A stretch of 64,000 nt of DNA. Origin: Bacteroidota bacterium (GTDB taxonomy: Bacteria; Bacteroidota; Bacteroidia; Bacteroidales; B18-G4). The notes beneath the pieces were generated by a model, which was not told the origin of the DNA, ran no database searches, and saw only the letters and a program-made list of their open reading frames with translations. Both the position numbers and the translations under genes were made by a program. Of the stretch, positions 47,891-63,330 are shown piece by piece (position 1 is the first letter of the stretch; the number at the start of each line of letters is the position of its first letter). The stretch covers positions 3,315-67,314 of the forward strand of contig JABMQZ010000106.1 of assembly GCA_013202965.1 (NCBI GenBank), given 5' to 3'.

Positions 47891-50800
47891 ATGGAAAAAC
47901 GAGATAGGCCGAACAAAGATTTGAAGCGATTGCAGGCGGAAGCCGGGGAGAGATTAAAAGAACTTGCTGCGATCAACCAGACCACACAGTTATTGAGTGA
48001 AGGCAAGACCGTTGAAGAAACCCTGGCCCGCATCGTTGATATTCTGCCACCGGCATGGCAATACCCGGAATATACAGTTGCACGCATAGTTTTTGGTAAA
48101 CTCATATTTACCAGTGCGAATTTCATGCCTACAAACTGGAAGCAGCAACAGGCTTTTGAAACCATCGATGGCATTAAAGGCTCTATTGAAATATTCTACA
48201 TACGGGAGTTCCCCGACCTGGATGAAGGCCCTTTCATGGCGGAAGAAAGACAGCTGATCAACAACCTTAGCGGCCTCATCACGGGATATCTTAACAGTCT
48301 GAAGGGGCGTACACTCTTAAAAGAAGAAAAAGACATTCCCGGAAAGAAAAGTCCGGATATCTTGCCAGACAAACCTCAGGTCTATAGTCGTCAGCTGCTT
48401 CAAAAGTTTCTTAATAAAAATAACTACGACCGTGATATCTACCACGACCTTATGCCATTTAAGGTCAAAGAGATCCTCCTGGTTGCCAACCTATATGATG
48501 CATACAGCATTGAAAAGGAAGGCCGGTTTTCGGAGCACGTCCTGGGTGAATATCATCAGCTGAGCCTGACTTCAATTCCAAGGATCACCGGTGTTTCAAA
48601 TGAACAGGAGGCGATGGAGCAATTGCGTTCCAAACATTTTGACCTCGTGATACTGATGATGGGTGCTGACAAGAAATCTCCCATTGGATTGAGCTGCCGG
48701 ATCAAGAAGGAATATTCATATATCCCTGTATTCCTTTTGCTGAATAATAACAGTGACATAGAGTACATATCACGGCGAAAAGCTTCCACCAAACATATTG
48801 ACAAAGTATTTGTCTGGAACGGAGAATCAAAGGTATTCTTTGCCATGATCAAGCATGTGGAGGACAGCATCAATGTTGAGAATGATACCAATATTGGCAT
48901 GGTACGGGTGATATTGCTGGTGGAAGATTCCCCTAAGTATTATTCCAGGTATCTCCCCATGCTGTACAATATCGTGCTGGAGCAAACCAGACATATCATT
49001 GATGACGTCAGCACCGATGAATTATACAAGGTTCTCAAACTCAGGGCAAGGCCAAAAATATTGCTGGCTTCCAATTACGAGGAAGCTGTTGATATCATTG
49101 ATAAATACAAAGACTATCTCCTGTGTCTTATCACGGATGTGAAGTTCGAAAGGAATGGAAAAGAAGAACCCCAGGCAGGCCTGGATCTGGTGAAATATTT
49201 AAGGGAAAATACCAGGCATCTGCCCATCATCATACAGTCATCTGAGGAAGCCAATGCAGATAAAGCGTATAAACTGAAATCTACTTTTATCAATAAGAAT
49301 TCTGAAAGTCTTTCACAGGATTTTAAGAGTTTTATTACACATTATCTCGGCTTTGGTAATTTTATTTACCGCAACGATAAAGGACAGGTTATTGCTGTGG
49401 CAAAATCGCTTAAAGAATTTGAGAGGTTGCTTAAAACCATTCCGGATGAATCGCTTATCCATCATGCAAGAAAAGATCAGTTCTCCTTATGGTTGATGGC
49501 CAGGGGAGAGATACAGGCAGCCAAGATCCTTAGCCCGCATAAAGTCACTGATTTCGGAAGTCCACAGAAGATCAGGGAATATCTGCTTGAGATTATCTCC
49601 AAGTTCAGGAATGAGCAGGAGAGGGGCAAAATCGTTCCCTTTGAAAAATCGGCCATCACCGACGATTCCAATATTGTTGCACTGATGGAGGGTTCCCTTG
49701 GAGGAAAAGGCCGGGGAATCGCCTTCATCAATACCTTGATCTATAATTATGATTTCAGTCAGCAACTCCCCGGCATTCATATAAAAGCTCCGAAAACAGT
49801 TTTAATAGGCACCGAAGAGTTTGAATATTTCATGGAACGAAATGGCCTGACAGAATTGATCTTAAATGAAAAAGATTATTCAAAGATCAAAAAGGCATTT
49901 CTCAAGTCCCGCCTTACAGAAACCATGATCAAAAGATTAAAGATGGTGCTCGTCGATTTCAAAAAACCGATCGCCATAAGGTCATCCGGACTGTTTGAGG
50001 ATTCGCTGATGCAGCCATTTGCCGGAATATTTGAAACTTTTCTTTTGCCAAACAGCCACCCCGATCCCAAAGTGCGCCTGCAGCAGGCCATGGATGCCAT
50101 AAAAATGGTATATGCCAGTGTGTATTCAGAAATGGCCCGCGGCTATGTGGAAGCCGTCCATTATAAGATCGAAGAGGAAAAGATGGCTGTGGTCATTCAG
50201 GAAGTTGTAGGAAATCAGTATGATCATTACTTTTACCCGCATATCAGTGGTGCAGCCCAGTCATTTAATTATTACCCGGTATCGCACATGAAACCTGAAG
50301 AGGGATTTGTTGTAGCCGCTGTCGGACTGGGAAAATACGTTGTGGAGGGTGAAAAAGCATTCCGTTTTTCTCCAAAGTATCCTGAAATAGAGATCAACAG
50401 CCCCAAAGACCAGTATAAAAACTCACAGCTGCAATTTTTTGCTGTCGACCTGGAGAAAAAAGAACCGAATCTCCTGGAAGGCGATATCGCAGGACTGGCC
50501 CGGCTGGATATAGATGAAGCGGAAAAACAGGGAACCCTCAAACATTGCGCTTCTGTTTATAATCCCGATAATGACCAGATTCTGCCGGGGCTGACCCATC
50601 CCGGCCCACGCATTGTGAATTTTGCCAATATCCTTAAATATAAGTATATTCCACTTGCGCAAACGATCGAAGTTGTCCTTGATGTCGTGAAAGAAGCACT
50701 GGGATCTCCTGTGGAAATTGAATTTGCTGTCGACCTGAACAAAGATAAAAACGGACTGGCATCTTTTTACCTCTTACAGATCAAACCACTGCTCGGGAGT

Positions 50801-51349
50801 GCATCCGACTATAATGTCAATCTGGATAAGATCAAAAAGGAAAGTATTCTGATGTATTCCGAAAAAGGGATGGGCAATGGTATCATTGAGGATATCGAAG
50901 ATGTGATTTATGTTGATCAGTCGACTTTCGATAAAGCGGATACTGTCGAAATTGCGGAGGAAGTGAACAAACTGAATACCTTGATGGTTGCTGATAAGCG
51001 GAAATATATTCTGATTGGGCCGGGCCGTTGGGGAACACGTGACCGCTGGATCGGGATACCTGTCAACTGGCCTCAGATCTCAAATGCAGGCATCATCATT
51101 GAAACAAGTCTTGAAGATTTTCCATTGGATGCTTCTTCAGGATCACACTTTTTTCACAATGTCACCTCCATGAACGTCGGATATTTCTCTGTTCAGCCTG
51201 AGTTCGCGAACAGCTACATCAGGTATGATATTCTTGCCGGGCAGAAACTGATCAGTGAAATGAAATACGTGAAGCATATTCGTTTCAAAAAGCCATTGAA
51301 AGTCAGGATGGATGGAAAAAAACGGATTTCAGTGATCACCCTTGAATGA
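47891..51349 (+). CDS. Multidomain protein: N-terminal sensor-like domain + two receiver-like domains + PEP/pyruvate-binding (PPDK_N ATP-grasp) domain + conserved C-terminal domain
   Basis: Sensor-like part: LKELAAINQ...ILPPAWQYPEYTVARIVFG...IEIFY...DEGPFMAEERQLINNL. REC-like parts: KEILLVANLYD... and RVILLVEDSPKY... ATP-grasp signature: GSLGGKGRGIAFIN...IRSSGLFED. No phosphohistidine TSHAA-type motif was seen. Confidence 0.65.
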   Translation: MEKRDRPNKDLKRLQAEAGERLKELAAINQTTQLLSEGKTVEETLARIVDILPPAWQYPEYTVARIVFGKLIFTSANFMPTNWKQQQAFETIDGIKGSIEIFYIREFPDLDEGPFMAEERQLINNLSGLITGYLNSLKGRTLLKEEKDIPGKKSPDILPDKPQVYSRQLLQKFLNKNNYDRDIYHDLMPFKVKEILLVANLYDAYSIEKEGRFSEHVLGEYHQLSLTSIPRITGVSNEQEAMEQLRSKHFDLVILMMGADKKSPIGLSCRIKKEYSYIPVFLLLNNNSDIEYISRRKASTKHIDKVFVWNGESKVFFAMIKHVEDSINVENDTNIGMVRVILLVEDSPKYYSRYLPMLYNIVLEQTRHIIDDVSTDELYKVLKLRARPKILLASNYEEAVDIIDKYKDYLLCLITDVKFERNGKEEPQAGLDLVKYLRENTRHLPIIIQSSEEANADKAYKLKSTFINKNSESLSQDFKSFITHYLGFGNFIYRNDKGQVIAVAKSLKEFERLLKTIPDESLIHHARKDQFSLWLMARGEIQAAKILSPHKVTDFGSPQKIREYLLEIISKFRNEQERGKIVPFEKSAITDDSNIVALMEGSLGGKGRGIAFINTLIYNYDFSQQLPGIHIKAPKTVLIGTEEFEYFMERNGLTELILNEKDYSKIKKAFLKSRLTETMIKRLKMVLVDFKKPIAIRSSGLFEDSLMQPFAGIFETFLLPNSHPDPKVRLQQAMDAIKMVYASVYSEMARGYVEAVHYKIEEEKMAVVIQEVVGNQYDHYFYPHISGAAQSFNYYPVSHMKPEEGFVVAAVGLGKYVVEGEKAFRFSPKYPEIEINSPKDQYKNSQLQFFAVDLEKKEPNLLEGDIAGLARLDIDEAEKQGTLKHCASVYNPDNDQILPGLTHPGPRIVNFANILKYKYIPLAQTIEVVLDVVKEALGSPVEIEFAVDLNKDKNGLASFYLLQIKPLLGSASDYNVNLDKIKKESILMYSEKGMGNGIIEDIEDVIYVDQSTFDKADTVEIAEEVNKLNTLMVADKRKYILIGPGRWGTRDRWIGIPVNWPQISNAGIIIETSLEDFPLDASSGSHFFHNVTSMNVGYFSVQPEFANSYIRYDILAGQKLISEMKYVKHIRFKKPLKVRMDGKKRISVITLE

Positions 51350-51382: not shown

Positions 51383-51431
51383 AGATGCTGGATGCTGGAT
51401 ACGGGATACTGGATGCTGGATACTGGACAGC
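51383..51431. repeat. Tandem heptamer array (AGATGCT GGATGCT GGATACG GGATACT GGATGCT GGATACT GGACAGC)
   Basis: Read directly, 33 nt after the stop at 51349. Confidence 0.9.
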
Positions 51432-51703: not shown

Positions 51704-52564
51704 ATGTATGAACTGATCTCTCTCAAGCTGAAATGCCCTGTTTGCGGGGAGTCGCTGATGGATGACAGCCACCTTGTCGACAATGAAACCAGTATTATGC
51801 TGAATGTGGAAATGGCTGGAAAGAAAGGCGAGATCCGGCTGAGCTCAATATATGGCAGCTATAACTATGTTACGGATGTAGAGATGCCTAAGGGAGAAGT
51901 TGCTAAATTCAGTTGCCCTCACTGTAAAACACAAATTACCTCGGACTCAGAATGCCTTTCCTGTGGTGCCAACATGGTACCCTTTTACCTTGACATGGGA
52001 GGGAAGGTCACGATTTGCTCAAGAAGTGGCTGTAAAAATCATATCGTCGAGTTTGAAGACCTCTCGATTGCATTGAAAAAACTCTACCAGGAATACGGGC
52101 TGGCCGGCAAGGATGACTTCAAGCCTGAGCGTAAAATCACTCCGGTTGAGCAAGCGGTTGATGAAAATAAGGAAATCATCGAATCAGGAACATTTCTGAA
52201 TGCCTATTGCCCGCATTGCGATAAGAGCCTCCTGGAAGATGGCATGCTCAAACTGAAAATCCACAATGGTGAAGAAGGCTTCCTGATGCTCAGCCCATAT
52301 CTGAACGTATTTACCTCCAAGTCGACTATTTTTCTTGCCGAAGAAAAAACTGTTAAGGATATACGTTGCTGCCATTGTAACCAAAGCCTGATCTCTGCAG
52401 ATAAAACATGTGAAAAATGCGACTCTTCAGTGGCAAAGATCGCTATTGGAGCCAGAACAAAACTGATCGATTTCTATATCTGTACAAAGAAAGGTTGCCG
52501 CTGGCATGGCCTCAGTTCGGATGACTTGATTGATATCCGCCTGCAGGACAGCCTTGAGTGGTAA
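51704..52564 (+). CDS. Cys-rich protein made of two copies of an 8-Cys/1-His CxxC module (paralogue 1), function unknown
   Basis: Module 1: C11xxC14...C71xxC74-x9-C84xxC87-x17-C105x4C110xxH113. Module 2: C169xxC172...C222xxC225-x10-C236xxC239-x20-C260x4C265xxH268. Paralogues lie at 59776 and at the N-terminus of the 61501 ORF. Confidence 0.8.
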   Translation: MYELISLKLKCPVCGESLMDDSHLVDNETSIMLNVEMAGKKGEIRLSSIYGSYNYVTDVEMPKGEVAKFSCPHCKTQITSDSECLSCGANMVPFYLDMGGKVTICSRSGCKNHIVEFEDLSIALKKLYQEYGLAGKDDFKPERKITPVEQAVDENKEIIESGTFLNAYCPHCDKSLLEDGMLKLKIHNGEEGFLMLSPYLNVFTSKSTIFLAEEKTVKDIRCCHCNQSLISADKTCEKCDSSVAKIAIGARTKLIDFYICTKKGCRWHGLSSDDLIDIRLQDSLEW

Positions 52565-52567
52565 GTT

Positions 52568-53962
52568 CTACCATTCACCACTTGTAAGATATTCATGAAT
52601 TCCTTTTGCTGCGGTTTTACCAGCACCCATTGCTAATATTACAGTTGCTGCGCCGGTTGCAACATCACCCCCGGCAAAAACACCTCTTTTTGTAGTTTTA
52701 CCTGTTTGCAGATCGGTAACAATGGTTTCTTTTCTTGTGATTTCCAGGTCTGGTGTAGTAGCCGGAATTAATGGATTGGGGCTGTTACCGATAGCAATAA
52801 TTACAATATCTACAGGTATTTTAATATTTGAGCCATCAATAGGAACAGGCCTTCTTCTGCCCGAATCATCCGGTTCGCCAAGTTCCATCCTGATACATTC
52901 AGCTTCTTTTACCCATCCGTTTTCGCCATGAAAAGCAATCGGGTTGGTTAATAGCTGAAAATTAACACCTTCTTCTTCGGCATGGTGAATTTCCTCATTC
53001 CTGGCAGGCATCTGCTCTTTTGCACGGCGATAAATCAATATGGATTCTTCCGCACCAAGACGTAGGGCAGTCCTCGCACAATCCATGGCTACATTGCCTC
53101 CGCCAACTGTGGCAACTCTTTTCCCTTTTGCAATGGGGGTTTTGTATTTCGGGAATAAATAAGCTTTCATCAAATTTGCCCTGGTAAGGTATTCATTGGC
53201 AGAATAAAGTCTGTTTAGGTTCTCACCCGGAATTCCCATAAACCAGGGTAAACCGGCACCTGTGCCAAGAAAAATTGCATCGTATTCCTCCAGTAATTCA
53301 TCAAGGCTTTTGATCATGCCGATCACTGTATCCGTATGTAATCTAACCCCCATTTTAGAAAGAAAGTCGATCTCTTTGAATACAATTGCTTTGGGAAGTC
53401 TGAATTCGGGTATTCCATACACCAGCACACCACCCGGCTCATGCAGGGCCTCAAAAATTTCAACCGTGTGCCCAAATCTAACCAGGTCTGCTGCTGCAGT
53501 GATACCAGCAGGACCGGCACCAACAACAGCCACTTTCTTTCCTGTGGATTTTGGCAGTACCGGTATTTCTATTTCAATATTTTCTCTTTCCCAATCTGCC
53601 AGGAAACGTTCTAACCTGCCAATAGCAACAGGCTCATATTTCTTCCCCAGGATGCATTCTCTTTCACACTGTTCTTCCTGAGGGCAAACCCGCCCACAGA
53701 TAGCCGGTAAGATATTTTTCTCCTTTAACCTGACAATCCCCTCTTTGAATTTTTTTTCAGCTATAAAACCTATAAAACCTGGAATATCTATTTCTACCGG
53801 ACAACCATCGACACATAATGGCTTTTTGCACTGAAGACAACGATGTGCTTCTGCTATGGCTTCTTCAGGGGAATAACCATAAGGAACCTCATTGAAGTTT
53901 TTAATCCGTTCTTCCGGTGGTTGCTCACGCATGGGATTTTTATTTGGAATAATCTTACCCAT
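52568..53962 (-). CDS. GltD/NfnB/SudA-like NAD(P)H oxidoreductase subunit (2x[4Fe-4S] + FAD + NAD(P)H)
   Basis: RCLQCKKPLCVDGCPVEIDIPGFI, CGRVCPQEEQCE, VAVVGAGPAGITAA and VFAGGDVATGAATVILAMGAGK. Confidence 0.85.
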   Translation of the reverse strand: MGKIIPNKNPMREQPPEERIKNFNEVPYGYSPEEAIAEAHRCLQCKKPLCVDGCPVEIDIPGFIGFIAEKKFKEGIVRLKEKNILPAICGRVCPQEEQCERECILGKKYEPVAIGRLERFLADWERENIEIEIPVLPKSTGKKVAVVGAGPAGITAAADLVRFGHTVEIFEALHEPGGVLVYGIPEFRLPKAIVFKEIDFLSKMGVRLHTDTVIGMIKSLDELLEEYDAIFLGTGAGLPWFMGIPGENLNRLYSANEYLTRANLMKAYLFPKYKTPIAKGKRVATVGGGNVAMDCARTALRLGAEESILIYRRAKEQMPARNEEIHHAEEEGVNFQLLTNPIAFHGENGWVKEAECIRMELGEPDDSGRRRPVPIDGSNIKIPVDIVIIAIGNSPNPLIPATTPDLEITRKETIVTDLQTGKTTKRGVFAGGDVATGAATVILAMGAGKTAAKGIHEYLTSGEW

Positions 53963-53963
53963 A

Positions 53964-54779
53964 TCACAACCTTTCTTTTGATATTATTTCTTCTTCAATG
54001 TATGCTTTCCTTCGGTCAAGAACGATATCCCAGTTTATCTTGTGACCATCGAAATGAGGGCCGTCAACACAGGCAAATTTTGTTTCTCCACCTACCTCAA
54101 GCCTGCAGGCACCACACATACCGGTTCCATCTATCATAACAGGATTCATGCTAACAATGGTATTAATACCATAAGGCTTGGTAGTATGGGCTATCTTGTA
54201 CATCATATAAGTACAGCCAACTGCAAAAACCATATCATAATATTCTCCCGATTCCAGGTTCTCTTTTAGCAGGTCATGTGAATGACCTTTTGAGCCGAGA
54301 GATCCGTCAGTTGTACTGTAACGAACTTCATCAGCCACAGATTCAAGTTTTTCATTCCAGTATAGAAGAAACCGGCTTCTGGCCTCCGAATAGCAAACAA
54401 CCTTGTTACCACATTCTTTCAAAGCTTTAGCCAAAGGATATATCGCACCGATTCCATAACAACCTCCAACTAAACCGACAGTTCCGTATTTTTTTATTTC
54501 AAAAGATCTTCCAAGCGGGCCGGTGAATGAAAAAATCTCATCACCGGTATTTAATGCAGCCAGGCTTTGGGTTCCTGCACCAATCTCAAGAAAAAGGATG
54601 CTGATTGTTCCTTGTTCATTATCCCAATCAGCAATGGTAATAGGGATGCGTTCAGCATATTTGTCCGGAATAACAATAACAAATTGACCCGCCCTGGCCT
54701 TCTTTGCAATATCCGGTGCCGCAACAATAAACTCATGGATATTTGGGACAATATGCTCTTTATGTAAAATCTTAACCAT
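53964..54779 (-). CDS. NfnA/SudB/PyrK-like FAD/NAD-binding subunit with C-terminal [2Fe-2S]
   Basis: GQFVIV...RIPITIAD, GPLG, LVGGCYGIGAIYP and GTGMCGACRLEVGGETKFACVDGP. Confidence 0.85.
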   Translation of the reverse strand: MVKILHKEHIVPNIHEFIVAAPDIAKKARAGQFVIVIPDKYAERIPITIADWDNEQGTISILFLEIGAGTQSLAALNTGDEIFSFTGPLGRSFEIKKYGTVGLVGGCYGIGAIYPLAKALKECGNKVVCYSEARSRFLLYWNEKLESVADEVRYSTTDGSLGSKGHSHDLLKENLESGEYYDMVFAVGCTYMMYKIAHTTKPYGINTIVSMNPVMIDGTGMCGACRLEVGGETKFACVDGPHFDGHKINWDIVLDRRKAYIEEEIISKERL

Positions 54780-57129
54780 GTTTCCCTCCTTTTTTATCGA
54801 TAAGCTGTTTCATGTCAGGGATTAGTTTTGACATGGAATTCCCCTGATAGAGAAAATAATCTGGTTCGGGAATCATTTCTATTTTACGCTTCTTCAATGG
54901 AATTTTAATATCAGGCATGGATAACACAAATTTTGATGTTTTCCTGCTGGTTTTATCAATTGACAAATCGAGCTTAGCCGTAATTTCCTCATATATTTCA
55001 TTCGTTTTTCTATACTGAAAGCTTTTATTTTTGAGTTTTCGACTTATATTAGAAAGTATTTGCCATGTTGGCTTTATGAATTCAGGTGCATGAACAGCCG
55101 GATTTATCTGTTTTAAATTTCTTTCAATATTAATAATATGACCATTTGATTCAGTAAAACAATATGCAGGTAATAAGATATCAGCATATTTGGATGTTTC
55201 GGTTATGAACATATTCTGCTGAACAAAAAATTCAAGTTCATTCAATTTTTCATGATCCGGCAGATCACCTTTGAGGAATAATGATTTAAAATTATTCCCC
55301 GGAAGATTACTTATCATTTCATCAGTTGATAATCCTGATACAGGTGAAATATCTATACCCCAAGCCTCTGACCATTTTTTTTCCCCATTTCTGACTTCCA
55401 GAAATCCGGGTAAATATTCCGGGTGCATACCGGTGTAAGTGGCTCCAAAACGATTTCCGTCGTCAACCAAAAACATCATCCCGCAATCAGCGAATTTATT
55501 TAAGGCAAAATGGATATTTGAAAGTAAATTAAAATTATCATTACTTGATGACGATTTAAACAAGGTATCACCTGCAATTATCAGTATTTTTTTTGCTGGT
55601 GCAAGCGATTCGATGATTTTCCTGATCTGTGCCTGTTTGATGCCTGTTGCCGTGGATGCATGTTTTTTATCAATAAGCTTTAAAGCATCGGATATGTCTT
55701 TAGGGAATTTAATGTTTTGCGCGGTCTTGAGGTCTTTTAGTATCTGAAGAAGAAAAATATTTTCTGAGCCCGGATGATATATTATCCGTTCATTCGAAAA
55801 CTGGTATGTTCTGTTTAAATGGGAATGAGCCGTAATAATTTTAGCATCATGATGATATGCTTTCCTGACCCTGTTTTCTATTATGGGATGTGATACCGAA
55901 GCGTTTGATCCAATTATAAAAATAGCGTCAAATCCAATAATTTCATCAATTCCGACAGGCTGAAACCCATGTACTTTTTTAAACAGAGATCGGTCATTGT
56001 AAGTGGGGGAAAGGTCTATATTGTTAGATCCCATAACTACTCTGCAAAATTTTTGCAATGCATAGGAGTTTTCAATCGTATCGTGGGCAGAACCGATTAT
56101 TCCAAAATCATTTCCACTGAATTCTTTAAAATGTTTTGTTATAATATCGATGGCCTGATCCCAGGTTATTTCAAGCCAGGCGCCATTTTTATTGATAAGG
56201 GGTTTTATGATTCGTTCCGGGTGATGTGTAATATCTGCCGGTATAAATTTCCCGCGGATGCATAATTGATCCGGTTCGGTCCTTTTTCCCGGCCTGGGAC
56301 CGATGTTAACAATCCGGTTGCCTTTTGTGTTGATGTTCATCCTGCAACCTACAGAACAAAGTATACATGTAGATGTTGTTGAATCGGTCGGGACACCTAC
56401 CCAACTGCCCATTTTTTCAGAAAGGGAACCAGTAGGGCATACATCTACACATGCACCACAATATTCACAACCTGCTTCTATTTGGGATTCACCAAAAGCA
56501 GTGCCAACCAGGGTAGAATTACCACGCTGCACAAAAGCCAGAACCCCGCTATATCTTTCTTCATTACATATTCTAACACATCTGCCGCAAAGGATACATA
56601 AATTATAATCCAAATCGTAAAAGGGATTATTCTTGATGGCTTGAACATTTCGATAGGTTATGGGGAACCTGATATCTTTTAGGTCAAGATATTCAACCAG
56701 GTCCTGTAGCTCACAACCTCCATTGCTTGTGCAGAAGTTACAACCGGTAGTAACAGTAACCTTTCTTGTGGTATACATGAAATCCTGACATTCCTTTTTA
56801 TCGTTGCATATCAGGCATGAATATGGATGTTCCGAAAGAATGAGCTCAAGAATTTCACGTCTGATGGATTGCAACTCAGGAGATTTAGTGCTTATTTCCA
56901 TCTCATTGGTGACCGGAGTTGTACATGCGGTTGGATAACCTATCATGTTTTTTATCTCCACAATACATAAACGGCACCCACCATAGCTTTTCAAACCTTT
57001 AAGATAACAAAGGGTGGGAATATATATCCCTGCGGACGTAGCCGCATCCAGTACCGTTGAACCTTCAGGAACCTGAATTTGTTTCCCGTCGATTTCAACT
57101 GAAATATATATACCCTTATCTGATTTCAT
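54772..57129 (-). CDS. NuoG-like Fe-S subunit with a molybdopterin-oxidoreductase-fold domain that looks catalytically degenerate
   Basis: N-terminal 2Fe-2S ferredoxin fold (TLCYLKGLKSYGGCRLCIVEI), HPYSCLICNDKKECQ, CILCGRCVRIC, CEYCGACVDVCPTG and Molybdop_Fe4S4 (CILCSVGCRMN...LCIRGKF). No H-cluster motif. No Cys/Sec-His at the FDH active-site position (it reads NNIDLSPTYND). Confidence 0.75.
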   Translation of the reverse strand: MKSDKGIYISVEIDGKQIQVPEGSTVLDAATSAGIYIPTLCYLKGLKSYGGCRLCIVEIKNMIGYPTACTTPVTNEMEISTKSPELQSIRREILELILSEHPYSCLICNDKKECQDFMYTTRKVTVTTGCNFCTSNGGCELQDLVEYLDLKDIRFPITYRNVQAIKNNPFYDLDYNLCILCGRCVRICNEERYSGVLAFVQRGNSTLVGTAFGESQIEAGCEYCGACVDVCPTGSLSEKMGSWVGVPTDSTTSTCILCSVGCRMNINTKGNRIVNIGPRPGKRTEPDQLCIRGKFIPADITHHPERIIKPLINKNGAWLEITWDQAIDIITKHFKEFSGNDFGIIGSAHDTIENSYALQKFCRVVMGSNNIDLSPTYNDRSLFKKVHGFQPVGIDEIIGFDAIFIIGSNASVSHPIIENRVRKAYHHDAKIITAHSHLNRTYQFSNERIIYHPGSENIFLLQILKDLKTAQNIKFPKDISDALKLIDKKHASTATGIKQAQIRKIIESLAPAKKILIIAGDTLFKSSSSNDNFNLLSNIHFALNKFADCGMMFLVDDGNRFGATYTGMHPEYLPGFLEVRNGEKKWSEAWGIDISPVSGLSTDEMISNLPGNNFKSLFLKGDLPDHEKLNELEFFVQQNMFITETSKYADILLPAYCFTESNGHIINIERNLKQINPAVHAPEFIKPTWQILSNISRKLKNKSFQYRKTNEIYEEITAKLDLSIDKTSRKTSKFVLSMPDIKIPLKKRKIEMIPEPDYFLYQGNSMSKLIPDMKQLIDKKGGKHG

Positions 57130-57161
57130 GTTATTTATTATGACAGTTTAATCATAGATTA

Positions 57162-59030
57162 TTAAGATACTATTATAATTGCATCGCCGGCGATAGCATC
57201 AAACCTGCAAATTTCATAACAGGCCCTGCATTTAATACACTTTTCAGGATCAAGGTTATGTGGTTCGCTTCTGGGGCCTGTAATAGCACCGGTCGGACAA
57301 ACTTCCACACAGCGCTGACAACCTGTACATTTCTCCTTTATCACCCTGTATTCCACCAGGTCGCGACAAACTGCCGCAACACAACGTTTGTCTTCAATAT
57401 GTTCTTGATATTCACGGTAAAAATATTTAAGTGTTGTGAGAACCGGGTTGGGAGCAGTTTGTCCTAAGCCGCAAAGAGATCCGTTTTTTACGGTTTTTGC
57501 AATATTTTCAAGTGTTGCAAGGTCATCGATGCTTCCAGTGCCTTTTGTGAATTTCTCAAGTATCTCTACCATCCTTTTGGTTCCGATACGGCATGGCGTG
57601 CATTTGCCACAACTTTCTTTACTGGTAAAATTTAAAAAATACTTGGCCACATCCACCATGCATGAATTTTCGTCCATAACGATCAATCCACCTGAACCCA
57701 TAATCGATCCGGCCTCAGAGAGTGATTCATAATCGATAGGCAGATCAATATGTTCTTCGGTCAGGCAACCACCTGAAGGCCCTCCGGTTTGAACAGCCTT
57801 AAAAGGTTTTATTGTCCCCCCTCCAATATCATAAATTATTTCACGCAATGTAATACCGAGAGGAACTTCAATTAATCCTGTACGCCTTACCTTTCCGACA
57901 AGGGCAAATGTTTTAGTTCCTTTGCTGTTTGCGGTTCCATACTGATTGTACCAGTCACCACCATTTCTCAGAATATTTGGGATTGTTCCCAGGGTTTCAA
58001 CATTATTGATTGTTGTTGGATTACCATTCAATCCTGATAAAGTCGGATATGGTGGCCTGCTTCTGGGCATGCCCCTTTCTCCTTCAATAGAGGCGATCAA
58101 TGCAGTTTCTTCACCACAAACAAAAGCACCTGCCCCTTCTTTAAGTTTTATTTCAAGATTGAATCCGCTATCAAGAATATTCCTGCCAAGTAATCCGGCC
58201 TGTTTCATCTGGGCAATAGCAATGTTAAGTCGTTCAATCGCCAGGGGATACTCGGCCCTGATATAAATGTATGCCTGGTTTGCACCTAAAGCATAAGCTG
58301 CAATGATCATGCCCTCAAGCAATGCAAAAGGATCTCCTTCTATAAGGGATCTGTTCATGAAAGCTCCCGGATCACCTTCATCAGCATTGCATATCAGATA
58401 TTTTATCTTTCCTTTAGCTTCCCGGCAGAATTGCCATTTTTTGTATGTTGGGAATCCGGCACCACCTCTTCCTCTTAAGCCGGATATCCTTATTTCTTCA
58501 ATTACTTCTTCCGGTCCTTTTTCAAAGGCATTGATCAGCCCTGAAAAACCATCCCTTGCAATGTAATGCATGATGTTTTCAGGATCAACAATGCCACAAT
58601 TCCGTAGTACAATACGTTTCTGGTATTTCAGCATAGGAAGTTCCCAGAATGATTTTGTGCCATTAATTGTTTCGATTCCATCACCCAGGTGCGCCAAAGG
58701 TTTGAGTTTGGATTCATCACTGAAGGCAAACTCTTTGATGATCTTTTTAGCCCTGTCAGCATCAACATTATTAAAAGTAAAACGCGATGATCCGGGTTTT
58801 TGGACATCGAGCAAAGGTTCAAAATAACACGGTCCGATACACCCCACTTTTATGGTTTGGAACTTATATTTTGAATTATCCTTGATTTTCTGAATGCTTT
58901 TCCAGACATCACCTGCTCCTGATGCCAATCCGCAAGTTCCCATGCCAACATACACTACCGGATCGGAACTATGCTGAAGCATTTCCCATTGTTCTTGTGC
59001 GGTTTTTTGCAGCTGTTCAAAATCATTCAT
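57162..59030 (-). CDS. NuoF/HydB-like NADH-binding flavoprotein with extra Fe-S domains (Bfu-type B subunit)
   Basis: GLRGRGGAGFPTYKKW, NADEGDPGAF and ESCGKCTPCRIGT. The N-terminal thioredoxin-like region has GTCGLASG...GCIGPCY. The C-terminal region has CTGCQRCVEVCPTG and CIKCRACYEIC. Confidence 0.9.
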   Translation of the reverse strand: MNDFEQLQKTAQEQWEMLQHSSDPVVYVGMGTCGLASGAGDVWKSIQKIKDNSKYKFQTIKVGCIGPCYFEPLLDVQKPGSSRFTFNNVDADRAKKIIKEFAFSDESKLKPLAHLGDGIETINGTKSFWELPMLKYQKRIVLRNCGIVDPENIMHYIARDGFSGLINAFEKGPEEVIEEIRISGLRGRGGAGFPTYKKWQFCREAKGKIKYLICNADEGDPGAFMNRSLIEGDPFALLEGMIIAAYALGANQAYIYIRAEYPLAIERLNIAIAQMKQAGLLGRNILDSGFNLEIKLKEGAGAFVCGEETALIASIEGERGMPRSRPPYPTLSGLNGNPTTINNVETLGTIPNILRNGGDWYNQYGTANSKGTKTFALVGKVRRTGLIEVPLGITLREIIYDIGGGTIKPFKAVQTGGPSGGCLTEEHIDLPIDYESLSEAGSIMGSGGLIVMDENSCMVDVAKYFLNFTSKESCGKCTPCRIGTKRMVEILEKFTKGTGSIDDLATLENIAKTVKNGSLCGLGQTAPNPVLTTLKYFYREYQEHIEDKRCVAAVCRDLVEYRVIKEKCTGCQRCVEVCPTGAITGPRSEPHNLDPEKCIKCRACYEICRFDAIAGDAIIIVS

Positions 59031-59475
59031 AATTACTCAAAATCTGACGTAGTTTAATAACCGACAATCTGCTGTGTATATCGTTATCAACCATCATTAC
59101 CGGTGCAATGGCACAACATCCCAAACATGCAACCCTTTCAAGATCAAATCTGCCGTCTTCCGTAGTACTACCGGGTGTTATCCCAATTTCCATCTGTAAT
59201 GCACTCAGTATAAAATCCCCACCCTGAACATGACAGGCTGTTCCCAGGCAGATCTTTATCGAATGTCTGCCGGGTGGATTAAACTTGAATTGAGAGTAAA
59301 AAGTGGCAACACCATAAATTGTGCTACAGGATATATTCAAATATTCGGAAATTTCTCTAATGGTGTTAGATGGAATATATCCTTCCTGATGCTGAACATG
59401 TTGAAGAATAGGAATCAGGTCTCCTTTACTGCATTCAGGAAAGTGTTTACCAAGCGTATTTAACAAACTGCTCAT
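59023..59475 (-). CDS. NuoE/HydC-like thioredoxin-fold [2Fe-2S] subunit
   Basis: CLGTACHVQGG...CLGCCAIAPVMMV. It overlaps the NuoF-like gene by 8 nt. Confidence 0.9.
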   Translation of the reverse strand: MSSLLNTLGKHFPECSKGDLIPILQHVQHQEGYIPSNTIREISEYLNISCSTIYGVATFYSQFKFNPPGRHSIKICLGTACHVQGGDFILSALQMEIGITPGSTTEDGRFDLERVACLGCCAIAPVMMVDNDIHSRLSVIKLRQILSNYE

Positions 59476-59775: not shown

Positions 59776-60630
59776 ATGGACGATATTCTAAATGATTTTA
59801 TTTTTTTACGGGTAAAATGCCCGATCTGTGATCATTCCCTTATGGATCAGGAAAACTATGTTGATGGTAAACCGGGAATTAAATTGTTTGTTGAATCTGC
59901 AGAGAATAAAGGAATTATCGTATTGAGTGCTATTTATGAAAGTTATAATTACAGGTGTGATATTCCGATCGAAAGTGGTGATATAGTTACTTTCTCCTGT
60001 CCGCATTGCGGGAAAGTAATTACAAGTAAAACCGAATGCGAATATTGTGAAGCAGCTATGGTACCTCTTGAACTGGATATTGGAGGAAAGGCAAGCATTT
60101 GCTCAAGAAGTGGTTGTAAAGGGCATTTCCTGGAATTTGAAGATGTCTTGCTTGCTTTTAATAAGCTTTACCAGCTTGGTGATTATAAAGGTTCAATTCC
60201 GGAAGGATTAAAAGAAAACGGAGAATCAACAGAAATTATTAAAACAGGGACTTTCCTTAATCCCTATTGTCCGAAATGCAATAAGTCTCTTATAAAAGAT
60301 GGATTGATCACACTGAAAATCATTAACGACAGGAATGAGGAAGGTCTTGTGTTTCTAAGCCCATTCCTGAATGTGTTCACTTCCAGGTCAACAGTATTTT
60401 TAAAGGAGGATCAAACAGTTAAGGATATTATCTGCACCCATTGCAATACAAGTATAATCGATTTAGACAGGAATTGTGAACAATGCGGATCACCTGTCGC
60501 TAAAATAAAAGTGAGTGCCCGCACCAAATTCATCGACTTTTATATATGTTCAAAAAAAGGATGCAGGTGGCATGGGCTGAGTAATGAAGATCTTCATGAA
60601 ATTGATCTTGAAGACAGTATGGAATGGTAA
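59776..60630 (+). CDS. Cys-rich double CxxC-module protein (paralogue 2), function unknown
   Basis: Same motif spacing as paralogue 1: C15xxC18...C75xxC78-x9-C88xxC91-x17-C109x4C114xxH117, and C165xxC168...C220xxC223-x10-C234xxC237-x20-C258x4C263xxH266. About 55% identical by eye, with the same C-terminal DS(L/M)EW. Confidence 0.8.
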   Translation: MDDILNDFIFLRVKCPICDHSLMDQENYVDGKPGIKLFVESAENKGIIVLSAIYESYNYRCDIPIESGDIVTFSCPHCGKVITSKTECEYCEAAMVPLELDIGGKASICSRSGCKGHFLEFEDVLLAFNKLYQLGDYKGSIPEGLKENGESTEIIKTGTFLNPYCPKCNKSLIKDGLITLKIINDRNEEGLVFLSPFLNVFTSRSTVFLKEDQTVKDIICTHCNTSIIDLDRNCEQCGSPVAKIKVSARTKFIDFYICSKKGCRWHGLSNEDLHEIDLEDSMEW

Positions 60631-60664: not shown

Positions 60665-61489
60665 ATGTTTCAGATAAAGAAAAAAGAAACAATGGCAAAG
60701 GGGACGATCGTTAGATTTGATATTGATGCCCCTAAAATTGCAAAAAAGTTAAAACCGGGACAATTTGTCATTATCAGGGTAAATGAGACAGGAGAAAGAA
60801 TTCCTCTAACAGTTGCCGATAAGGATGCATTTGCAGGGATCATAACTATTATCTTTCAGGTTGTCGGGAAAACAACTGCATTGATGAGATCGCTCAATGA
60901 GGGCGATTTTTTATTGGATGTTGTCGGGCCATTAGGTAAACCAGCAGAAGTTGATAATATTGGTACTGTTTTAATGGTTGGCGGAGGTACGGGTGTGGCA
61001 ATTCTTCATCATGTGGCAAAAGCATTTCATGAAGCAGGAAATTATGTTATCGGTATTATGGGTGCCAAGGAAAAAGATATGCTCATCCTTGAAAATGAAA
61101 TGATAGCCATATGCGATGACCTTGTTGTTACAACTGATGACGGGAGTTATGGGGAAAGAGGATTTGTTACCCAGCCACTTGAGAAATACCTGAATGAACG
61201 TCATGATATAAAATTGGTTTATACCATTGGTCCGATTATTATGATGAAGAATGTTGTGAAGCTGACAAAAAAGTTTAATGTTCCGACTTTAGTTAGCTTA
61301 AATCCTATTATGATAGATGGAACAGGTATGTGTGGAGGCTGCAGGGTAAAGGTGAATAACGAAACCAAGTTCTGTTGTGTTGACGGTCCCGACTTTGATG
61401 GTTACCAGGTTGACTTTGATGAATTGCTTAAAAGGAATTCGATGTATTTACAGGATGAGAAAGATTCATTGTTGTTTTCAATCAAGTAA
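60665..61489 (+). CDS. Second NfnA/PyrK-like FAD/[2Fe-2S] subunit
   Basis: GQFVIIRVNETGERIPLTVAD, GPLG, MVGGGTGVAILH and GTGMCGGCRVKVNNETKFCCVDGP. An alternative start exists at 60692. Confidence 0.85.
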   Translation: MFQIKKKETMAKGTIVRFDIDAPKIAKKLKPGQFVIIRVNETGERIPLTVADKDAFAGIITIIFQVVGKTTALMRSLNEGDFLLDVVGPLGKPAEVDNIGTVLMVGGGTGVAILHHVAKAFHEAGNYVIGIMGAKEKDMLILENEMIAICDDLVVTTDDGSYGERGFVTQPLEKYLNERHDIKLVYTIGPIIMMKNVVKLTKKFNVPTLVSLNPIMIDGTGMCGGCRVKVNNETKFCCVDGPDFDGYQVDFDELLKRNSMYLQDEKDSLLFSIK

Positions 61490-61500
61490 AACGAAGAAAT

Positions 61501-63330
61501 ATGTTAGAACAGGATATAAGATATTTAAAGTATAAAACCTATTTAAGTTTTTACTGCCCGCATTGTAGCAACACCTTCAATGTGGAAAGGGCACATGAAA
61601 AGTCATTGATATTCAATGCAAAATGGAAAAATGAAGACCTGGTGTTGAAGCTCAGTCCTTTTCTCGATGTTTTTGATATTAAAACATCTATTGAAATGCC
61701 ACAGGATGAGGTTCTGGATGATCTGTTCTGCCCGCATTGTAAGCAAAGTATTATTGATCCTCATGTTCATTGCGATGAATGTGGTTCCAAGGTCGGTAAA
61801 GCAATAGTATCAGCATATGCCAAGCTCATTCCGTTTTATTTTTGTTTGAAAAATGGATGTGAATGGCACGGCATTACAAAAGAGGACGAAAAGAAAATCA
61901 AGTTAAAAATTCCTCGTCAGCTTATGCCTGAGCAGGATCAGAAATTAAGGGTTAATAATTTTCAGGAAGTACCCTATGGTTATACTACCGAACTGGCAAT
62001 GCTTGAAGCCGGCAGATGCCTTCAGTGTAAAAAACCGAAGTGTGTTGAAGGATGCCCTGTAAATATTGACATACCCGGATTTATTGAATTAATAACCCAG
62101 GAGAAATTTACTGAGGCAGTACACAAAATTAAGGAAACCAACGTTTTTCCGGCAATTTGCGGACGTGTCTGCCCCCAGGAATCCCAGTGTGAAGTATTAT
62201 GTATTCTTGGTAGAAAAGATGAACCCGTAGCCATAGGTCGATTGGAACGTTTTGTTGCAGACTATGAAAGGAAAATGGATCTGGTTGAAATACCTGAAAT
62301 TAAAAAAAATACAGGTAAGAAGATAGCTGTTATCGGTTCAGGCCCTGGTGGTTTAACAGTTGCTGCCGATATGCGTATGCTTGGCTATGAGGTTACCATT
62401 TTTGAAGCCCTGCATGAATCAGGTGGAGTATTAACGTATGGTATTCCTGAATTCAGGCTTCCCAAATCAATTGTGCAATCTGAAATTGATTATTTAATAA
62501 AACTGGGTGTCAGGATAGAACTGAATCATATCATTGGGAATATCCTTACGGTTGATGAACTACTTGAACATTTTGACGCAGTTTATATTGGTGTAGGTGC
62601 AGGATTGCCCTGGTTTATGAGCCTTGAAGGTGAAAGCCTGGGGAATGTATTCTCGGCCAATGAATATCTCACCCGTATGAACCTGATGAAAGCCTATAAA
62701 TTTCCCGAGTATGACACACCTATGCCACATGGCAATCATATTGCCGTGATCGGTGGCGGAAATGTGGCCATGGATTGTGCCAGAACGGCAAAGCGTACCG
62801 GTGCATCAGAAGTGACTATCGTATACCGAAGATCACGCCATGAATTACCGGCCAGGACCGAAGAAGTGCACCATGCAGAAGAAGAAGGTATAAATTTTAA
62901 GCTTCTTACATCTCCTACCCGGTATATCGGCACAGACTCAAGTATAATCAAGTCCATAGAATGTATTAGAATGGAACTTGGCGAACCAGATGCTTCAGGA
63001 AGAAGAAGACCGATACCTATTGAGGGTTCCAACTTTATCATGGATTGCGATATGGCAATTGTTGCCATAGGAAACGGTCCCAATCCGATATTGTTCCAGT
63101 CAACTCCGGATTTAAAACTTAATAAAAGGGGCTATATCGAAGTAAATCCTGATACTATGGAAACCTCCAAAGAGTTTGTATATGCCGGCGGCGATATTGT
63201 AACCGGAGCTGCTACCGTTATTCTGGCAATGGGTGCCGGAAGGATCGCTGCCACAGCTATGCATAAAAAGCTGACAGCCATACAGGAGAAGGCGAAAAAG
63301 AAGGTGGTGCCTAAGAAGAAAAGCGAATAG
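61501..63330 (+). CDS. Fusion protein: single CxxC module (aa ~15-125) + GltD/NfnB-like oxidoreductase (aa ~145-609)
   Basis: N-terminal module: C19xxC22...C77xxC80-x10-C91xxC94-x20-C115x4C120xxH123, which has module-2 spacing. LSPFLDVFDIKTSI and FYFCLKNGCEWHG align with the free paralogues. The rest is NfnB-like: RCLQCKKPKCVEGCPVNIDIPGFI, IAVIGSGPGGLTVA and YAGGDIVTGAATVILAMGAG. Confidence 0.85.
   Translation: MLEQDIRYLKYKTYLSFYCPHCSNTFNVERAHEKSLIFNAKWKNEDLVLKLSPFLDVFDIKTSIEMPQDEVLDDLFCPHCKQSIIDPHVHCDECGSKVGKAIVSAYAKLIPFYFCLKNGCEWHGITKEDEKKIKLKIPRQLMPEQDQKLRVNNFQEVPYGYTTELAMLEAGRCLQCKKPKCVEGCPVNIDIPGFIELITQEKFTEAVHKIKETNVFPAICGRVCPQESQCEVLCILGRKDEPVAIGRLERFVADYERKMDLVEIPEIKKNTGKKIAVIGSGPGGLTVAADMRMLGYEVTIFEALHESGGVLTYGIPEFRLPKSIVQSEIDYLIKLGVRIELNHIIGNILTVDELLEHFDAVYIGVGAGLPWFMSLEGESLGNVFSANEYLTRMNLMKAYKFPEYDTPMPHGNHIAVIGGGNVAMDCARTAKRTGASEVTIVYRRSRHELPARTEEVHHAEEEGINFKLLTSPTRYIGTDSSIIKSIECIRMELGEPDASGRRRPIPIEGSNFIMDCDMAIVAIGNGPNPILFQSTPDLKLNKRGYIEVNPDTMETSKEFVYAGGDIVTGAATVILAMGAGRIAATAMHKKLTAIQEKAKKKVVPKKKSE
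61555..61869 (+). other. Extent of the CxxC module (first Cys to the conserved His) inside the fusion ORF
   Basis: Coordinates derived from residue numbers C19 to H123 of the 61501 ORF. Confidence 0.7.

Follow-up and report, generated by a model that had tools for sequence, protein, structure and literature searches.

Two families of enzymes, NfnAB (the NADH-dependent ferredoxin:NADP+ oxidoreductase, Nfn) and the Bfu enzymes based on NuoE/F/G-type subunits, are the reference systems for flavin-based electron bifurcation, and both are treated as complete with their known subunits. Here we describe Cys1, a cysteine-rich protein of 286 amino acids encoded at positions 51704..52564 (+ strand) of a 64,000-nucleotide stretch of DNA, called the window below, from a Bacteroidota bacterium of the order Bacteroidales (GenBank assembly GCA_013202965.1, contig JABMQZ010000106.1, positions 3,315 to 67,314). 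The operon partners of the Cys1 family are close homologs of NfnA and NfnB, as known from Thermotoga (4ylf) and Pyrococcus (NfnI, 5jca). Characterised NfnAB has two subunits, whereas here NfnB carries an additional N-terminal module of 139 residues, and a third gene encodes a protein with two modules. We propose that Cys1 binds zinc and serves Nfn-type enzymes as a docking or assembly subunit, and that it is not a free electron carrier. As a whole, this explanation seems to us evenly poised between right and wrong; its first part, that Cys1 is accessory to Nfn-type enzymes, is probable when taken alone.

Several components of this arrangement are already known, namely zinc knuckles as building blocks, and NfnAB and NuoE/F/G-type modules as partners. 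The novelty lies in the domain itself, in its free-standing tandem form, and in an NfnAB of three components that is decorated with the module. The neighbouring NuoE/F/G-type genes belong to the superfamily of the Bfu-type enzymes (HydABC, NfnABC/Stn). Zinc sites in Bfu enzymes lie inside the NuoF-like subunit, not in separate eight-cysteine domains (PMC11829005), and the module is not mentioned in a survey of the Bfu family (PMC9304861).

Cys1 contains two copies of an eight-cysteine module

The reading frame of Cys1 has no internal stops, and the opposite strand is stop-rich. Sixteen of its 17 cysteines fall into a skeleton that occurs twice, and each of the 16 lies in a CxxC or Cx4C knuckle, as a first-pass annotation of this DNA had stated; C223 is an additional, non-conserved cysteine. 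The first half of the protein consists of C11xxC14, 56 residues, C71xxC74, 9 residues, C84xxC87, 17 residues and C105x4C110xxH113. The second half consists of C169xxC172, 49 residues, C222xxC225, 10 residues, C236xxC239, 20 residues and C260x4C265xxH268. The first spacer had been given as 50 to 56 residues, which is correct for the first half and one residue too long for the second.

Residues 1-135 align with residues 154-286 in BLASTP (E 1e-8), and profile-profile comparison of alignments of the two halves with hhalign yields 98.3% probability and E 1.3e-14 over 108 columns, which include the insert between the first CxxC knuckles. Both the homology of the halves and the similarity of their inserts had been noticed at first pass, and Cys1 is confirmed as a genuine protein made of two diverged copies of one eight-cysteine module.

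We refer to the two copies as N-type and C-type. The N-type module occupies residues 6-131 (51719..52096, + strand), and the C-type module residues 158-286 (52175..52561, + strand), each with the eight cysteines and the histidine listed above. Between them is a linker (residues 132-157; 52097..52174, + strand) that is variable in length and poorly conserved among full-length homologs. The protein ends in a conserved tail that is predicted to be disordered (52529..52561, + strand; last residues L-Q-D-S-L-E-W-COOH). Cys1 has no hydrophobic stretch (the maximum Kyte-Doolittle mean over 19 residues is 1.06), in agreement with the earlier statement that it lacks a transmembrane segment. It is acidic, with 34 lysines and arginines, 43 aspartates and glutamates, and a net charge of about -9.

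Family, conservation and architectures of the module

A search of 5.8 billion protein clusters (90%-identity collection) detects 764 relatives of Cys1 at E<=1e-3. The best 120 of these are 64-93% identical to Cys1, are nearly all about 286-291 amino acids long, and have no label, the label 'hypothetical' or a generic automatic zinc-finger name. No Pfam or NCBIfam model spans the module in Cys1 or in Cys2, its paralog in the window. Local matches to generic zinc ribbons occur, as in DZR (PF12773; 23.7 bits for Cys1 and 27.8 for Cys2, cut-off 27.3) and Zn_ribbon_6 (PF07191; 20.3 and 27.8 bits, cut-off 25), which cover ~22-35 residues around one knuckle pair. The literature that we searched held no description of the module. 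It appears to be a domain of roughly 120 residues that family models do not describe.

Conservation within the family is high. The 16 cysteines, both histidines and the C-terminal E-W are invariant in an alignment of 39 full-length homologs (S283, E285 and W286 among them), and the eight cysteines are invariant in an alignment of 60 diverse modules. When clusters at 50% identity are considered, all eight cysteines are intact in 88 of 91 complete N-type modules and in 26 of 31 complete C-type modules, and the five C-type exceptions all replace the same inner-knuckle cysteine by D, S or G. Only 86% of N-type and 74% of C-type modules have the histidine, which is for this reason dispensable and not an obligatory ligand. 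The first-pass description of an 8-Cys/1-His module thus holds for the near-invariant cysteines and not for the histidine.

An exhaustive HMMER scan of 1.84 billion representatives of 50%-identity clusters finds the module in 311 clusters at E<=1e-3. Among the best 150 of these 311, we count 76 clusters with a single N-type module, 24 with a single C-type module, 16 with an N-C tandem as in Cys1, 18 in which an N-type module follows an N-terminal extension, 8 in which it precedes a C-terminal extension, and a few with other module combinations. Most of the N-terminal extensions are thioredoxin-type [2Fe-2S] domains of the NuoE-like kind, so that the module is at the C terminus of a NuoE-like protein (10 confirmed); one such fusion also has a response-regulator receiver. 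The C-terminal extensions include CBS pairs (4 clusters), and further fusion partners are adenylate cyclase with AAA_16 and Mur-ligase-like proteins. In NfnB fusions, a C-type module sits before the Fer4_20 domain. Modules are found in Bacteroidota, Ignavibacteria, Chlorobiota, Cloacimonetes and archaea. A strict rule of N-type and C-type pairing was considered and dropped, as some loci have two N-type singles and one archaeal locus has C-type modules only.

Proteins that end in a C-type module usually have a tail with the consensus L-E-D-S-x-E-W, which ends in W in 22 of 33 clusters and in EW in 19 of 33. The NfnB-fused copy of the module does not have this EDSxEW tail. The disordered tail may be a short docking motif.

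Association with NfnA and NfnB

The window contains exactly five copies of the module according to a scan of all six frames with a hidden Markov model (HMM): two in Cys1, two in Cys2 and one at the N terminus of an NfnB homolog, NfnB2. The copies in Cys2 and NfnB2 had not been noticed at first pass. Cys2 (59776..60630, + strand; 284 amino acids) has an N-type and a C-type module, is 54% identical to Cys1, and is encoded directly upstream of NfnA2 (60665..61489, + strand; 274 amino acids; NCBIfam PRK06222, 391 bits). NfnB2 follows (61501..63330, + strand; 609 amino acids), and its residues 140-593 align to Thermotoga NfnB (4ylf_B, E 3e-168). The first ~139 residues of NfnB2 have no counterpart in solved NfnB structures, with which the alignment begins at residue 140, and it is here that the fifth, C-type module is found (61528..61908, + strand; HMM match E 1.5e-33; BLASTP 36% identity to the C-terminal half of Cys1, E 3e-30). 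The NfnA and NfnB homologs of the window exceed the cut-offs of NCBIfam PRK06222 and gltA.

We mapped the window proteins onto 80 loci from species-representative genomes, of which the 72 with at least 1 kb of DNA downstream of the Cys gene were counted. An NfnA homolog is next on the same strand in 62 of the 72, with a median gap of 49 bp, and in 61 of those 62 the series continues into a module-bearing NfnB homolog that aligns from its first residues. Five further loci have a layout like that of the window, with a convergent NfnB1, and the remaining five have another layout or none. Most of the hosts are uncultured Bacteroidales, and Lentimicrobiaceae, Ignavibacteria, Chlorobiota and 'Ca. 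Tepidiaquacella' are also represented. A Cloacimonetes contig has the same Cys-NfnA-NfnB order. This order is kept across several phyla, and the ancestral unit is accordingly a three-gene operon encoding the two-module protein, NfnA and module-NfnB. A conserved co-directional operon and fusions of the module to the NfnB N terminus and the NuoE-like C terminus are both found, as would befit a subunit of an NfnAB complex, and together they strongly support a functional tie between the module protein and Nfn-type flavoenzymes.

Archaeal loci show other combinations of the same parts. In one Thermoplasmatota contig, the co-directional genes are NfnA, NfnB (594 amino acids, with an N-terminal C-type module), a 140-amino-acid single C-type module, NuoE, NuoF, NuoG-like and NfnA. 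Another archaeal contig has a tandem-module protein of 244 amino acids directly upstream of NuoE, NuoF, NuoG-like, NfnA and NfnB, and the 263-amino-acid protein that precedes it may be a further module protein. At the Thermoplasmatota locus L092 (3888-4094), a frame of 69 amino acids overlaps the start of a 317-amino-acid NfnA gene, with a match to the C-type module over that module's last ~40 positions (E 1.3e-10). The frame could be what is left of a module gene upstream, or it could extend NfnA at its N terminus.

Modules are also seen near further redox systems. At locus L093 (7001-8061), two tandem genes for single N-type modules lie between hypA and hypE/D/C/F, near a [NiFe] hydrogenase/MvhD-type cluster and a NuoE-NuoF fusion, which shows that the module occurs beside hydrogenase systems too. 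In loci L002, L004, L005 and L008 (at about 13-20 kb in locus coordinates), NuoE, NuoF and a protein of ~1233 amino acids with Fer2_4, GltD-like and NuoG-like/molybdopterin domains are encoded a few kb or less downstream of the canonical operon. This set resembles Sporomusa-type Nfn (Stn) or NfnABC, and these canonical loci therefore contain two transhydrogenase-like systems side by side.

The company that the module keeps also bears on a different reading, raised at first pass, in which Cys1 is a multi-centre, rubredoxin-like Fe(Cys)4 carrier. Such a carrier would exchange electrons with the distal [4Fe-4S] cluster of NfnB or with the [2Fe-2S] cluster of NuoE. It would lengthen the ferredoxin branch or stand in for it, or else supply oxidative-stress enzymes. 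This idea is consistent with the near-invariance of the cysteines, with operon partners that are exclusively electron-transfer flavoproteins, with fused copies beside the Fer4_20 cluster domain at the NfnB N terminus and at the NuoE C terminus, and with the peroxiredoxin, thioredoxin or rubrerythrin genes that come after the operon in some loci. Evidence on the other side is given with the sequence comparisons below.

The window itself is a minority variant, in which a cassette of five genes, together with Cys2, was inserted inside the ancestral operon. The cassette (52568..59475, - strand; identified with Pfam and NCBIfam) splits Cys1 from NfnA2 and NfnB2 and consists of NfnB1 (52568-53962), NfnA1 (53964-54779), NuoG-like (54772-57129), NuoF-like (57162-59030) and NuoE-like (59023-59475) genes, all on the - strand. 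The stop codons of Cys1 and NfnB1 are 3 nucleotides apart in convergent orientation, and Cys2 and the cassette are divergently transcribed. The cassette is absent between the Cys gene and NfnA2 in 62 of the 72 loci and present in five. The full layout of the window is also found in L023 (94% identical) and L037, and L028, L039 and L049 match it up to the end of their sequence. Archaeal contigs have this cassette as well, there co-directional with module proteins, which gives the cassette a link of its own to the module. From the comparison of loci, the ancestral partner of Cys1 is NfnA2/NfnB2 (60665-63330), 8 kb downstream and now preceded by Cys2, and not the abutting NfnB1. The first-pass link between Cys1 and the neighbouring flavoenzymes therefore stands as far as Nfn-type enzymes in general are concerned, with the operon and fusions as its basis, and fails for the abutting NfnB-like gene as ancestral partner, which belongs to the inserted cassette.

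Predicted structure and similarity to zinc knuckles

An AlphaFold2 model of full-length Cys1 has two well-predicted all-beta domains, with a predicted local distance difference test score (pLDDT) of 76 and a predicted template modelling score (pTM) of 0.44. Residues 132-152 in the linker and 275-286 in the tail have pLDDT <50. The N-type module, when modelled alone from the 60-sequence alignment, reaches pLDDT 90.6 and pTM 0.80, and has eight strands and one C-terminal helix (120-131). The first spacer of the module (49-56 residues) is predicted to hold a three-stranded beta meander.

Foldseek comparison of the single-module model with 350,542 PDB chains returns no match at E<=0.001, and the whole domain therefore has no solved counterpart. 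The best match, to the C-terminal zinc ribbons of topoisomerase I, has E 0.28 and a template modelling (TM) score of 0.26. The full-length model yields only meaningless low-TM matches in the PDB, an uninformative result because its two modules are flexibly linked. Structure prediction and a fold search had been suggested at first pass, and of these the prediction supplied a confident single-module model and the search no fold match. Sequence searches of the PDB with the protein, the 60-sequence module profile and the central segment likewise gave nothing significant.

The topoisomerase matches raise the question of whether the module is a nucleic-acid-binding zinc finger, and Cys1 perhaps a transcription factor for the operon. 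Automatic names given by the Joint Genome Institute (JGI) to family members point the same way, as they refer to topoisomerase-type, single-stranded-DNA-binding zinc ribbons and to DUF1610, an RNA-binding zinc ribbon. The fold match is not significant, however, and the protein is acidic, its fusion partners are enzyme subunits rather than DNA-binding or translation proteins, and no helix-turn-helix or other nucleic-acid-binding family in Pfam or NCBIfam matches it. We regard this role as very improbable. As an identity for the protein, the topoisomerase I C-terminal zinc ribbon (COG0551) was rejected at the Foldseek values above and at a PDB sequence-profile E of 0.03 over 30 residues, and DUF1610 was rejected alongside it.

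The closest detectable resemblance lies with class I methionyl-tRNA synthetase (MetRS; PF09334 region; 9l8v, 1rqg, 1qqt), whose connective peptide has a zinc knuckle similar to the inner CPxC-x9-CxxC(G)A motif of the module. MetRS is the top PDB match of the central segment (phmmer E 0.008), and the inner knuckle pair of Cys1 (CPHC-x9-CxxCGA) aligns with the MetRS knuckle over 26 columns with an hhalign probability of 72.7%. Cys2 scores 23.0 bits against PF09334 (cut-off 20.1), and matches to this family are on record for many homologs. The MetRS segment has the order CxxC, x13, CxxC, x9, CxxC, x13, CxxC, a nested order like that of the module, and its knuckles bind structural zinc. Only ~26 columns align, however; the module differs in its first spacer of 49-56 residues and its Cx4C last knuckle, has no synthetase parts, and is a separate domain, either free or fused to redox subunits. 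Identity with MetRS was rejected, since the match is confined to profile positions about 102-174 of 391, corresponding to the knuckle insertion, and the 286-amino-acid protein has no Rossmann core.

Another weak match, to the zinc-ribbon part of HypA in Pfam (E 2.4e-4), could be read as a sign of a HypA-like metallochaperone or cofactor-maturation factor for the neighbouring metalloenzymes. Some JGI names agree with this, as does the single-module gene among hyp genes at one locus. The match is below threshold (PF01155; 21.5 bits, cut-off 28.9) and is restricted to profile positions 65-106; the N terminus is MYEL and does not have the N-terminal nickel-binding motif MHE; and the NfnAB operon partners contain no nickel. 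Identity with HypA was rejected on the same scores and the same N terminus, and a HypA-like function is hardly credible. Both the nucleic-acid and the HypA reading have only similarity at the level of knuckles in their favour, and are unlikely.

Rubredoxin resembles the module in having CxxC(G) knuckles that are able in principle to form M(Cys)4 sites, and differs from it in spacing and size. Neither paralog matches rubredoxin (PF00301) in Pfam at E<=1, and the NCBIfam rubrerythrin-like domain scores 12.6 bits for Cys2 only (cut-off 32). Comparison with Clostridium pasteurianum rubredoxin gives an hhalign probability of 4% over 9 columns, and rubredoxin identity was rejected.

A possible role as a zinc-binding accessory subunit

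If Cys1 is an accessory subunit, each module would use its four nested knuckles to form two Cys4 sites, so that the protein would have four. In the first module, the inner site would consist of C71/C74/C84/C87, and C11/C14/C105/C110 would make up an outer one by which the domain is clamped. This nested pairing is suggested by the MetRS segment, whose four CxxC knuckles have the same nested order. The sites would hold structural zinc, and the module would be a docking or assembly domain. The free two-module protein might then bind an Nfn-type complex as a third, non-catalytic subunit, perhaps through contacts of its modules with the NfnB-fused copy and through the conserved acidic EDSxEW tail. 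Once bound, it could lend stability to subunits or complexes, form a bridge between them, or bring in partners. CBS-pair or signalling domains may be tethered in a like manner by this domain in other lineages.

An analogy of function only is offered by NDUFS6/NUMM, a small zinc-binding, non-catalytic subunit of complex I that docks on its NADH-dehydrogenase module, which is of the NuoE/F/G type, and that is required in the late stages of assembly. NDUFS6 differs from Cys1 in having one zinc site and another fold.

Several observations favour zinc over iron. All detectable similarities are to zinc knuckles, of which that of MetRS is the best. The histidine is dispensable and one inner cysteine is replaced in 5 of 31 C-type modules, and structural sites tolerate such losses. 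Fe(Cys)4 centres have potentials of around 0 mV, much too positive to serve the low-potential ferredoxin branch of Nfn. Fusions of the module to proteins outside electron transfer, namely those with CBS pairs, cyclase/ATPase and Mur-ligase-like proteins, suggest structural metal, and also lead us to favour a docking domain over an electron carrier. Lastly, mononuclear cysteine-ligated sites in structures of the related Bfu/NfnABC enzymes have been assigned as Zn, not Fe (PMC11829005). These same points, together with the lack of a rubredoxin match, weaken the Fe(Cys)4 carrier, in spite of its electron-transfer operon partners, and we consider it unlikely. Of the three readings put forward at first pass, the zinc-ribbon scaffold fits best, to judge from the knuckle similarities and the non-redox fusions.

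Certain findings weigh against a zinc-binding accessory subunit. The strict conservation of eight cysteines and the near-exclusive electron-transfer partners would also fit redox-active centres, and the fused module adjoins the NfnB domain with ferredoxin-facing clusters, where an extra redox centre makes sense. The low pTM of the full-length model reflects the absence of confident packing between the modules, and the assignment of cysteines to sites is deduced from their order and the MetRS analogy. In the window, moreover, the operon is broken, with Cys1 convergent to NfnB1 and 8 kb from NfnA2, so that co-expression of Cys1 with NfnA2B2 is not assured there.

A related proposal is that Cys1 is a zinc-thiolate redox switch or regulatory subunit that tunes Nfn activity to the redox or energy state. 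On oxidation, its Cys4 sites could release their metal and become disulfides; alternatively, the EW tail could fill a nucleotide or flavin site. Sensory and regulatory fusions (CBS pairs, a response regulator with NuoE, and adenylate cyclase), thiol peroxidase or thioredoxin genes downstream in several loci, and the conserved, disordered, Trp-ended tail are all compatible with a switch. No sequence feature identifies one, however, and the neighbouring stress genes differ between loci. A switch would share zinc and binding to the complex with the accessory subunit that we prefer and would differ only in the effect of binding; we judge it to be quite unlikely.

Neighbouring genes and sequence elements

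Upstream of Cys1, the order glycosyltransferase, Wzy-like protein, glutamate dehydrogenase, PPDK_N protein and Cys1 is identical in relatives with the canonical operon. The PPDK_N-domain protein (47891..51349, + strand; 1152 amino acids) has an ATP-grasp, phosphoenolpyruvate-synthase-like domain and a weak receiver-like region. Its gene immediately precedes the Cys gene in 37 of the 61 loci that have room for it, all in Bacteroidota, and also in L094, a locus without downstream NfnA. A functional link between Cys1 and the PPDK_N protein was set aside in favour of lineage synteny, as the adjacency is lost outside Bacteroidota while the Nfn link persists.

Just past the PPDK_N stop codon, at 51384-51427, is a tandem repeat of GATACTG in 6.3 copies (or of a 21-nucleotide unit in 2.1 copies). 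The close relatives L007 and L023 do not have the repeat, although this intergenic region is otherwise highly conserved in them. A scan for sigma-70 promoters and terminators found sites no more frequently than in shuffled sequence, and the whole window has no Rfam match at or above the gathering score.

Implications for Nfn-type enzymes

The present analysis corrects automatic names now attached to members of the family, which include topoisomerase-type zinc finger, HypA, DUF1610 and methionyl-tRNA synthetase. The family would also represent a widespread extra component of bifurcating enzymes, encoded beside the enzymes or fused to them. Uncultured Bacteroidales have it, as do four or more further lineages, archaea among them. 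If its metal is structural zinc, the module would define an accessory or assembly subunit not recognised before, and a domain family that databases would need to model.

If the module is instead redox-active or regulatory, it would change electron routing or control in Nfn and Bfu enzymes. A bolder version of this idea, which we think has a small chance of being correct, is that the module represents a novel kind of cofactor domain, redox or regulatory, that specifically serves flavin-based electron-bifurcating enzymes, with either iron sites or the Trp tail as a switch. With iron bound, this form of Nfn would gain as many as six additional one-electron centres, which would take the place of the ferredoxin branch or gate it. 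With a tail switch, the terminal Trp of EDSxEW-COOH would insert at a flavin or nucleotide site and thereby switch the enzyme. Either would mean that a widespread three-component NfnAB differs in electron routing or control from the textbook two-subunit form.

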